Source: Planctomycetota bacterium (GTDB lineage: Bacteria > Planctomycetota > Phycisphaerae > Sedimentisphaerales > Anaerobacaceae). From it: a stretch of DNA of 32,000 bases. The first letter of the stretch is position 1, and each line of letters opens with the position of its first letter. The position numbers and the translations under genes are program-made. The stretch spans positions 1,835 to 33,834 of the forward strand of contig VRUK01000040.1 of assembly GCA_019456195.1 (NCBI GenBank), read 5' to 3'. Under the pieces are notes generated by a model, which was not told the origin of the DNA, did not search any database, and saw only the letters and a program-made list of their open reading frames with translations. Positions 18,646 to 19,994 of this stretch are shown one piece after another.

Positions 18646-18936
18646 CTAATCCGATTCGCAGCTACAATCGCTGCATACCTCATCGCCCCCGAACATTCCC
18701 TTTAAAACCGCAGTCGCGCAACCCACTCCCGATTTAACATTAATCGCCTCTACAGGGCAATTGAGACCGCACGCACCACATTCCATACATGCGTCCACAT
18801 CCACAATGACGGCCTTCTTTTCCTTCATTTCAAAAACTCTGTGAGGACACACCGTAGCACACAAACCACATCCGATACATTTATCAGTATCCAGTTCAAG
18901 AGTAACTACATTCTTAAGATATATTTGTCCCTTCAT
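18646..18936 (-). CDS. hgcB: HgcB, 2x[4Fe-4S] ferredoxin of the mercury-methylation pair
   Basis: 96 aa counted from the ATG at 18936; the track ORF extends upstream into hgcA. The clusters are CIGCGLCATVCP and CMECGACGLNCP, the latter carrying the HgcB-typical C(M/I)ECGAC. It also has an internal GVGCAT Cys and a Cys-rich C-terminus (CSDCSC). It starts 14 nt after the hgcA stop. Confidence 0.85.
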   Translation of the reverse strand: MKGQIYLKNVVTLELDTDKCIGCGLCATVCPHRVFEMKEKKAVIVDVDACMECGACGLNCPVEAINVKSGVGCATAVLKGMFGGDEVCSDCSCESD

Positions 18937-18950
18937 ATTCCAATCTCTCT

Positions 18951-19994
18951 CTAAACAAACCTGCCGGCAATCCACATCCCCATCCCAAGTACCCCGGCAA
19001 TAATCTGCAGCGGCACAGCGACATGCATTTCTCTTTTCACTCCCGACAGCGAAGTATATGTTGATGCCCCTGTGAAGTTCATCGCAAGAAAAGATGATAC
19101 CGCAGAAATCAAAAATATCCACGCAACAGTCTCAAGCCGGCTGCCTGTGAGTTTCAATGAAAATAAGACAACCGCCACAACAAGGCCGACTGAAAAACCC
19201 TTAAATGAAAAACTCCTTCCAGGCAGCCATGGCAGCAACAACGGAGTAATTACCGCACCACTTAAACACGCGGCAAAAAGATTCGCTATCGAACGAAGAC
19301 CATGGCTCATTGCTAAATCACTCGAATATCCTTTTGCGCTAATACCCGAGAGAATAAATAAAATCGCCATGACAATAATTAGATATTTCCCACCCATTAC
19401 AAATTCAACCGGCGTCAAAACCAATCTGTCATACAACGAAAAAAGCACCTGACGCATCTGCTGTGTCGCTTTCATGCCGGCTTTAATGAAATCAATTATA
19501 TCACAAGCACGGACCGGGCCGTAAATTACTGAGAAACCGCAATGTTTCTTAACTTCGTGCGCCGACACTCCGGGAGCGCCAAGCTGAGGTAAAATAATTT
19601 TGCGGTGGTTGACGATTTTATCAAGTTCCACAAGGTCGATACGATGAACTATTTCATCCGTACCGAAAGTTCCTTTGCCCGCTGCACACCATACATTAAC
19701 TCCTTTAGTATCCAGCACAATTATCCAGGCATCAAGCCCCCCTAACTCTTTGCGAATGGCATCAAAACTCAATTTATAATTTGCCGAAACCAGAACAACC
19801 GCTTCACCATCGGGATTACCAACCGCATAAATCCCGGGCTCCACGGCATATTTCATGCGTCTGATACTCAAACGTACTGTCCAGCTGCCAAATCGGTCAG
19901 CGAAACATAGTTCCGTCGGCACTCGCGGAATCTCCCTGCCGTTATGCACTATGAACGATAAATTGTGTATCTTTTCTGTCAATATTTCTTTCAC
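18951..19994 (-). CDS. hgcA: HgcA, corrinoid protein of the mercury-methylation pair (soluble corrinoid-binding domain plus ~5 TM helices)
   Basis: The diagnostic cap-helix motif GVNVWCAAGKGTFGT falls at aa 98-112 (Cys103; motif nt 19674-19703). The C-terminal half has about five hydrophobic helices. The GTG start at 19994 is uncertain. Confidence 0.9.
   Translation of the reverse strand: MKEILTEKIHNLSFIVHNGREIPRVPTELCFADRFGSWTVRLSIRRMKYAVEPGIYAVGNPDGEAVVLVSANYKLSFDAIRKELGGLDAWIIVLDTKGVNVWCAAGKGTFGTDEIVHRIDLVELDKIVNHRKIILPQLGAPGVSAHEVKKHCGFSVIYGPVRACDIIDFIKAGMKATQQMRQVLFSLYDRLVLTPVEFVMGGKYLIIVMAILFILSGISAKGYSSDLAMSHGLRSIANLFAACLSGAVITPLLLPWLPGRSFSFKGFSVGLVVAVVLFSLKLTGSRLETVAWIFLISAVSSFLAMNFTGASTYTSLSGVKREMHVAVPLQIIAGVLGMGMWIAGRFV

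Follow-up and report, generated by a model that had tools for sequence, protein, structure and literature searches.

The stretch of DNA analysed here, a window of 32 kb from a contig of the Planctomycetota, carries on its reverse strand two adjacent genes, hgcA and hgcB, whose products are the corrinoid protein and the ferredoxin of the mercury-methylation system. We consider it very likely that the pair is a true hgcAB operon of two genes, belonging to an uncultured bacterium of the Sedimentisphaerales type (Phycisphaerae, Planctomycetota), with the mercury-methylation mechanism proposed below. The identity of the genes, their intact motifs, the fold, their adjacency, the purifying selection acting on them, their setting in the core chromosome and the taxonomy of the host are supported directly by the observations.

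The hgcA and hgcB genes

Read mechanically, the hgcA open reading frame (ORF) extends over 18951..19994 (reverse strand) and comprises 347 aa, reaching a GTG codon at 19994. The true start, however, is probably the TTG codon at 19982, which would place hgcA at 18951..19982 (reverse strand) and give a protein of 343 aa beginning MTEKIHNLSF. This start is favoured by the length of most full-length HgcA homologues listed (343 aa), by their N-termini (the aligned ones mostly begin M[AT]EK), and by the gene callers, which also give an hgcA product of 343 aa in syntenic contigs; the sequence directly 5' of the TTG is GGGTGAAAG. The initial annotation had described the 347-aa ORF and its motif GVNVWCAAGK correctly, but its Cys103 holds in ORF numbering only, and with the TTG start the cysteine of the cap helix is likely Cys99. 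The codons for NVWCAAGK, within that motif, lie at 19674..19697 (reverse strand; ORF residues 100-107), and the TGT codon of the cysteine at 19686-19688 (reverse strand).

In an alignment of 98 homologues, the N, V, W and C of the cap helix are invariant, as are many residues of the membrane domain. This C-terminal domain, encoded at 18957..19412 (reverse strand), has five transmembrane helices, in agreement with the earlier count of about five: Kyte-Doolittle analysis gives five hydrophobic peaks C-terminal to the cap helix, and an AlphaFold model built on the same alignment, without cofactor, places five long helices (191-212, 221-248, 258-275, 282-306 and 312-342) after an alpha/beta Rossmann-like N-terminal domain (predicted local distance difference test score 84.4, predicted template-modelling score 0.73). 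At its N-terminus HgcA carries about 20 extra residues, which are conserved only in its Phycisphaerae relatives.

The hgcB gene (18646..18936, reverse strand) encodes a ferredoxin of 96 aa with two [4Fe-4S] motifs of the form CX2CX2CX3CP, CIGCGLCATVCP (Cys 20/23/26/30) and CMECGACGLNCP (Cys 50/53/56/60). A further cysteine, Cys73, lies within SGVGCA; nearly all of the 78 HgcB proteins examined have a cysteine there or at an adjacent position, mostly in GVGC, and from its position and the literature we infer that it is the counterpart of Cys73 in HgcB of strain ND132 (Pseudodesulfovibrio mercurii, also Desulfovibrio desulfuricans). The Cys-rich tail, VCSDCSCESD, contains three cysteines (88, 91 and 93), none of them adjacent. 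The closest relatives, L001 and L002, have VCCDCSCESD, and the vicinal pair was lost in the window through one T-to-A change (Cys89Ser); several other HgcB proteins are likewise without a CC. Thus the two clusters, the extra cysteine and the Cys-rich tail described earlier for HgcB were all recovered, except that the tail lacks vicinal cysteines.

The two genes are separated by a spacer of 14 nt, AGAGAGATTGGAAT (18937..18950, reverse strand), exactly as had been described, and because it is so short they are probably co-transcribed. In 78 of 80 related loci hgcB lies directly downstream of hgcA, and a terminator scan found no convincing terminator 3' of hgcB in the window.

Families were called with curated equivalog hidden Markov models (HMMs) of NCBI, each with its own cut-off, and with Pfam. 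HgcA scores 458.2 bits against NF040863 (HgcA_corrinoid; cut-off 275), with residues 22-346 aligned to positions 1-324 of the 325 in the model, and its residues 49-168 match Pfam CdhD (PF03599) with an E value of 7.6e-11. HgcB scores 123 bits against NF040864 (HgcB_ferredoxin; cut-off 99) and matches Fer4_21 and Fer4 in Pfam. The check by HgcA- and HgcB-specific models that had been suggested for the pair is therefore passed by both proteins. NVWCAAGK is on the community's high-stringency list of HgcA motifs, which also names a C(M/I)ECGA ferredoxin on the hgcA contig (PMC10087281); HgcB of the window contains CMECGAC and is encoded on the same contig as hgcA.

The best match of the HgcA model in a Foldseek search of the PDB library is 9a0b_A, the HgcA chain of a deposited HgcAB model (326 columns, 43% identity, template-modelling scores 0.68/0.70). 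This is the HgcAB of ND132, which has been characterised genetically and biochemically; the tie between it and the HgcA of the window comes from the HMM, from this fold-search alignment and from the literature. Both systems consist of two genes, and both HgcA proteins have a corrinoid domain resembling that of the corrinoid iron-sulfur protein (CFeSP), with the NVWCAAGK cap helix and then five transmembrane helices; the HgcB proteins share two CX2CX2CX3CP motifs, Cys73 and a Cys-rich tail. They differ in that the tail is C-x2-C-x-C in the window and ends in CC (Cys94-Cys95) in ND132, in the extra N-terminal residues of the window HgcA, in the lack of an ArsR-like regulator near the window genes, and in the host, which is a sulfate reducer in the case of ND132 and belongs to a fermentative-type Phycisphaerae lineage in the case of the window.

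Genomic setting, proposed mechanism and alternatives

The contig belongs to the Planctomycetota, class Phycisphaerae, and most likely to the order Sedimentisphaerales, as is indicated by synteny with independently assembled metagenome-assembled genomes (MAGs) and metagenome contigs, by DnaA matches and by trees; the assignment to the phylum made from the letters alone is borne out. The closest genomes are listed as uncultured bacterium, Planctomycetota bacterium NIOZ-UU13, Sedimentisphaerales (twice), Phycisphaerales and, once, uncultured Pirellulales, and the named best matches of DnaA from the same contig are Planctomycetes (89%), Sedimentisphaerales (87%), Phycisphaerales (83%) and Planctomycetota (80-83%). 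When corrinoid domains are arranged in a neighbour-joining tree with CFeSP as the root, the HgcA of the window falls within a compact clade made up of Phycisphaerae MAGs; this clade adjoins Kiritimatiellae and Lentisphaerae and is far from the outgroup. The initial annotation had named grouping with non-HgcA corrinoid proteins, or a cap-helix cysteine that fails to align, as grounds for rejecting its call, and neither was seen in tree or alignment. Within the species-level genome collection, identity reaches at most 90% for HgcA and at most about 93-97% for housekeeping proteins, and public assemblies have no record of the exact HgcA protein; since the nearest species-level genome is 90% identical, the window probably comes from one more species in this genus-level group. 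Compared with hgcAB of Phycisphaerae and Sedimentisphaerales MAGs from anoxic marine and brackish settings (NIOZ-UU13, and the Baltic bin278, PMC9494745; other NIOZ-UU MAGs are from the Black Sea, PMC10469668), HgcA is 84-90% and HgcB 85-97% identical, and the locus is the same (LamG, ribBA, pgsA-like, hgcB, hgcA, lipoprotein, gspF, pdxJ, dapA, dnaA), one difference being Cys89Ser in the HgcB tail of the window.

The order of genes in the window is LamG-domain proteins, a 171-aa ORF, ribBA, a pgsA-like gene, hgcB, hgcA, a 139-aa lipoprotein gene, a gspF/pilC-like gene, pdxJ, dapA, GT4, dnaA and ftsY, so that the core-gene neighbours named earlier (together with dnaA, ftsY and groEL) are indeed present. 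This order is kept in the species-representative MAGs L001-L004, with 79-97% amino acid identity over shared genes, is found as well in the metagenome contigs L081-L085, and is kept in part in L005, which is more distant. What looks like a loss of hgcB in L084 is a run of N and marks a scaffold gap. As the initial annotation had stated, mer and ars genes and regulators are absent: no mer, ars or ArsR/MerR genes occur within the 32-kb window. The gene dnaA (24742-26103, reverse strand) lies about 5 kb from hgcAB and the minimum of the cumulative GC skew is near 29-30 kb, which places the hgcAB locus probably close to the replication origin.

Purifying selection acts on hgcAB, and the pair has diverged together with its flanks. 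Pairwise ratios of nonsynonymous to synonymous divergence (dN/dS) are 0.13-0.26 for hgcA and 0.08-0.32 for hgcB, well below 1, and the dS values of hgcAB (0.19-0.39 to L001-L004 and 1.3-1.6 to L005) equal those of ribBA, pgsA, dapA and dnaA.

The mechanism we propose is drawn by analogy with the purified P. mercurii enzyme (PMC11588087), and the residues that it demands are all present in the window HgcAB as read from its sequence. HgcA would act as a membrane-anchored corrinoid protein, its N-terminal domain bearing the cap-helix cysteine and its five C-terminal helices serving as the anchor. The two [4Fe-4S] clusters of HgcB would relay low-potential electrons that reduce the cobalamin of HgcA to Co(I); S-adenosylmethionine (SAM), rather than methyl-tetrahydrofolate, would then methylate Co(I) to methyl-Co(III), with the cysteine thiolate as lower axial ligand, and the methyl group would pass to thiol-bound Hg(II) to give methylmercury. 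Cys73 and the C-terminal cysteines of HgcB are thought to assist in the handling of Hg(II). The operon would be expressed from a promoter-like element of which it has one copy to itself, another standing before pgsA-ribBA, with no dedicated regulator nearby. Cofactor binding, the use of SAM, mercury methylation in vivo and a promoter function of this repeated element are thus predicted steps.

Several points weigh against a methylating operon of this kind. Experimental demonstrations of mercury methylation come only from Desulfobacterota, Firmicutes and Euryarchaeota, and from no member of the Planctomycetota (PMC10087281). The HgcB of the window lacks the vicinal Cys-Cys that both ND132 and its own closest relatives possess; genes for corrinoid biosynthesis and for an obvious electron donor are missing from the window; residues 100-103 of the cap helix are the least confident part of the cofactor-free model; and the evidence for the promoter role of the element is a match to consensus.

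It is possible, though we think it doubtful, that orthologous HgcAB is selected for another role, such as SAM/corrinoid methyl transfer or membrane one-carbon or redox metabolism, with methylmercury as an accidental product. The position of hgcAB among housekeeping genes near dnaA, in the company of no mer, ars or metal-regulator gene, suits such a role, as does the fact that the pair is under purifying selection like its neighbours and yet dispensable, its site being empty in close relatives; moreover, what HgcAB does natively is an acknowledged question, for which one published idea is that methylmercury is antimicrobial (PMC10083202). However, an alternative substrate is known for no HgcAB, and the window points to no specific pathway. 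Another role would in any case be compatible with an ability to methylate mercury, and bears only on the reason for which the genes are selected.

Much less probable is a non-methylating HgcA-like paralogue, akin to the fused HgcAB-like proteins known from Pyrococcus and other organisms. HgcA does give a partial match of 195.7 bits to the model of the fused proteins (NF043039), and the HgcB tail lacks a CC. Against such a paralogue, single C94 or C95 mutants of ND132 reportedly kept activity in the 2015 work of Smith et al. The fusion model has a cut-off of 285, so that the score of HgcA, like the 57.4 bits of HgcB, is below it and the former is far below the 458 bits obtained with the HgcA model; and whereas the fused protein (for example Pyrococcus furiosus Q8U2U9) is one polypeptide, HgcA and HgcB of the window are encoded by two separate ORFs. 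Tested isolates with fused HgcAB-like proteins do not methylate mercury in culture, whereas the motif occurs in verified methylators and every unfused hgcA-positive isolate tested so far methylates (PMC10087281).

An identity as CFeSP, or the gamma subunit of acetyl-CoA decarbonylase/synthase (ACDS), of the Wood-Ljungdahl pathway is highly improbable and is excluded by domain architecture. In its favour are the CdhD match, the naming of several homologues by JGI, and a search of PDB sequences in which the only chains found are of CFeSP (2h9a, 4c1n and 4djd; E values from 1e-11 to 7e-8). The large subunit of CFeSP (AcsC/CdhE gamma; PDB 2h9a, 2ycl, 4djd) indeed has a cobalamin-binding Rossmann-like domain homologous to that of HgcA, but the match covers about 125 residues only; CFeSP is soluble, with an N-terminal [4Fe-4S] domain and a TIM barrel, both absent from HgcA, which has five transmembrane helices instead. 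Foldseek matches to CFeSP (4c1n, 2ycl, 2h9a) likewise cover just some 148 N-terminal columns of the HgcA model. In the alignment with 2h9a (E 1.2e-11) the cap-helix cysteine, the predicted cobalt ligand, is paired with a threonine of CFeSP; the CFeSP/ACDS gamma model NF003195 gives 70.7 bits (cut-off 306) and matches at positions 322-446 only; and no acs or cdh genes lie near hgcAB. CFeSP also takes its methyl group from methyl-tetrahydrofolate via MeTr in the Wood-Ljungdahl pathway, whereas HgcAB uses SAM (PMC11588087). That hgcAB is foreign DNA in a chimeric assembly or a decaying remnant, as the empty site in close relatives and a GC content of 0.43-0.45 (somewhat lower than in several neighbouring 1-kb windows) might suggest, is hardly credible, given two intact frames, dN/dS well below 1, a dS that matches the flanks, and junctions to either side of hgcAB that recur identically in assemblies made independently in different projects (L001-L004, L081-L085).

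Database names for these proteins diverge. Many close HgcA homologues are called 'acetyl-CoA decarbonylase/synthase complex subunit gamma' or 'hypothetical protein' by JGI (P0027, P0031, P0040), and NCBI names the same homologue clusters HgcA, for example 'mercury methylation corrinoid protein HgcA [Planctomycetota/Sedimentisphaerales]'. The JGI naming is a systematic mis-annotation that is relevant to metagenome surveys.

Presence and absence of hgcAB at a repeat-bounded site

Among syntenic loci fetched via relatives of DnaA, those of four close relatives (GCA_022561195.1 and JGI 3300005782, 3300032020 and 3300034982) have an empty hgcAB site, at which the lipoprotein gene is followed by 220-320 nt and then by pgsA-ribBA (L086:20858-21180, L087:15978-16200, L089:17886-18190 and L091:15550-15850); 'empty' refers to this site, and hgcAB may be present elsewhere in these genomes. 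L086 is 95.5% identical to the window in DapA and 91.6% in DnaA, and L087 is 88.3% identical in RibBA.

Alignment of filled and empty sites reveals that hgcAB is flanked by two copies of a direct repeat, of which the empty sites have a single copy, located upstream of pgsA-ribBA. The upstream copy (TTGTTA-N17-TAACAT; 20054..20105, reverse strand) is found some 70 nt ahead of the start of hgcA and delimits the indel on the left, and the downstream copy (TTGCCA-N17-TAACAT; 18543..18594, reverse strand) lies between hgcB and the pgsA-like gene and delimits it on the right. The period of the repeat equals the length of the indel, 1,511 bp. The copies are 81% identical over 52 nt, and the similarity extends to about 95 nt when a gap is allowed; their local alignment score is 54, as against 18 +/- 2.2 in shuffled sequences, and the pattern occurs twice in the 32 kb, where none is expected. 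The upstream element is kept 5' of hgcA in L001, L002, L004 and L081, and the single copy of L086 differs from the downstream copy at 2 of 42 positions. Judged by its match to consensus, the element is promoter-like, and transcription of hgcAB probably starts from a separate version of the element that stands before pgsA-ribBA. Scans of the whole window for Rfam families and tRNAs found nothing, including no FMN riboswitch at the pgsA-ribBA upstream element.

A recent duplication of the element in situ was rejected, as the copies are about 60% identical over 100 nt and upstream and downstream copies group together in 0 of 300 bootstraps. In all 300 bootstraps the downstream copies fall together with the one copy that L086 has, and the upstream copies form a group of their own, a little closer to those of L087, L089 and L091, which are likewise single.

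The trees are compatible with more than one direction of change at this site. In a RibBA tree rooted with distant representatives, the hgcAB-positive L005 is basal (78% bootstrap) and the hgcAB-positive genomes are never monophyletic; in L005, hgcB directly precedes pgsA and the upstream repeat is missing. A tree of concatenated PdxJ, DapA, GT4 and DnaA arranges the empty-site lineages as a ladder below a crown clade of hgcAB-positive genomes with 100% support. No outgroup genes were found among the 80 hgcA loci. At least two events are required: two insertions at one site, a loss followed by a regain, or at least three losses. In L003, a clean 672-bp deletion (818-1035 in L003, against 19989-20660 in the window) has removed the lipoprotein gene and the upstream element, and hgcA consequently lies behind the upstream region of the lipoprotein gene.

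As one tentative explanation, which we regard as possible but far from established, hgcAB may be a 1,511-bp cassette at a fixed site that was gained, or regained, by homologous recombination of the Campbell type at the element, from a related donor in which hgcB stood before pgsA. The incoming molecule would be a circular fragment of hgcA, hgcB and the element, and a single crossover at the element would yield the observed structure, so that hgcAB would come to stand after a housekeeping-type promoter copy of its own; if the two copies recombined, the genes would be excised cleanly and the gain reversed. If this is true, hgcAB-positive and hgcAB-negative lineages would be natural near-isogenic material for probing the function of hgcAB. 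The evolution of hgc genes has been described as vertical, with extensive loss and some transfer (PMC10083202; PMC7438021), and the polymorphism of this site fits that description at a fine scale.

Neighbouring features and significance

Upstream of hgcA, a predicted lipoprotein of 139 aa (20227-20646, reverse strand) has a signal peptide, MKFKILSVVVLICMALMLVSC, a lipobox and a Lys/Gly-rich tail, KGKGKAKGKSKGK, and matches no Pfam or NCBIfam family; it is kept in hgcAB-positive and hgcAB-negative relatives alike and therefore lies outside the hgcAB cassette. On the other side, the pgsA-like gene (17810-18439, reverse strand) encodes a CDP-alcohol phosphatidyltransferase (Pfam CDP-OH_P_transf) that scores 86 bits against the pgsA equivalog, below the cut-off of 109, so that its exact phospholipid product is uncertain; gene callers start this gene 15 codons later in relatives, giving 194 aa.

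Three large ORFs lie in tandem at 9271-15549 (reverse strand) and encode proteins of 753, 704 and 537 aa. The first two each have a Laminin_G_3/ConA-like domain and are similar to one another (about 60%, with cross-matching in relatives); the third matches no family and has a weak similarity, about 29%, to the other two, and its relatives differ in the number of copies. Two groEL genes (5-1048, cut by the edge of the window, and 2981-4600, both on the forward strand) enclose a gene for an alpha-L-fucosidase and are followed by dnaJ, grpE and a gene for an FmdB-type zinc-ribbon protein. At the other end, GC content falls to 0.33-0.37 between 30000 and 32000, against about 0.47 elsewhere; this region, which no relative covers, includes a gene for a 319-aa protein with a DUF4062 domain (30980-31939) and may be foreign or related to defence.

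The hgcAB call made from the sequence is correct, but the novelty implied by presenting the organism as a potential methylator outside the recognised groups is out of date, since hgcAB in Phycisphaerae and Sedimentisphaerales has been published repeatedly and the lineage is already known both to carry and to express these genes. Contigs and MAGs of the PVC superphylum (Planctomycetes-Verrucomicrobia-Chlamydiae), Planctomycetes included, had yielded hgcAB before 2020 (PMC7438021), Phycisphaerae are characteristic carriers of hgcA in the anoxic, sulfidic water column of the Black Sea (PMC10469668), and in redox-transition and euxinic water of the Baltic, expression of hgc is on record for a Sedimentisphaerales MAG (PMC9494745). 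What is new to us is the repeat-bounded polymorphism of hgcAB.

Methylmercury is a bioaccumulating neurotoxin, and forecasting its formation requires knowledge of which organisms carry functional hgcAB. Fermentative Phycisphaerae have already been flagged as quantitatively relevant putative methylators, although they have no cultured and assayed representative. To this the window adds one further hgcAB locus of the fermentative Phycisphaerae that live in anoxic waters, a locus that is intact and kept by selection. Its practical value is modest: a clean, full-length hgcAB reference with its genomic context. The presence and absence of hgcAB at one site within a genus-level group is a concrete case, at a fine scale, of the gain and loss that have so far been inferred mainly from phylogeny, and relatives with and without hgcAB offer natural comparisons for the native function of HgcAB.

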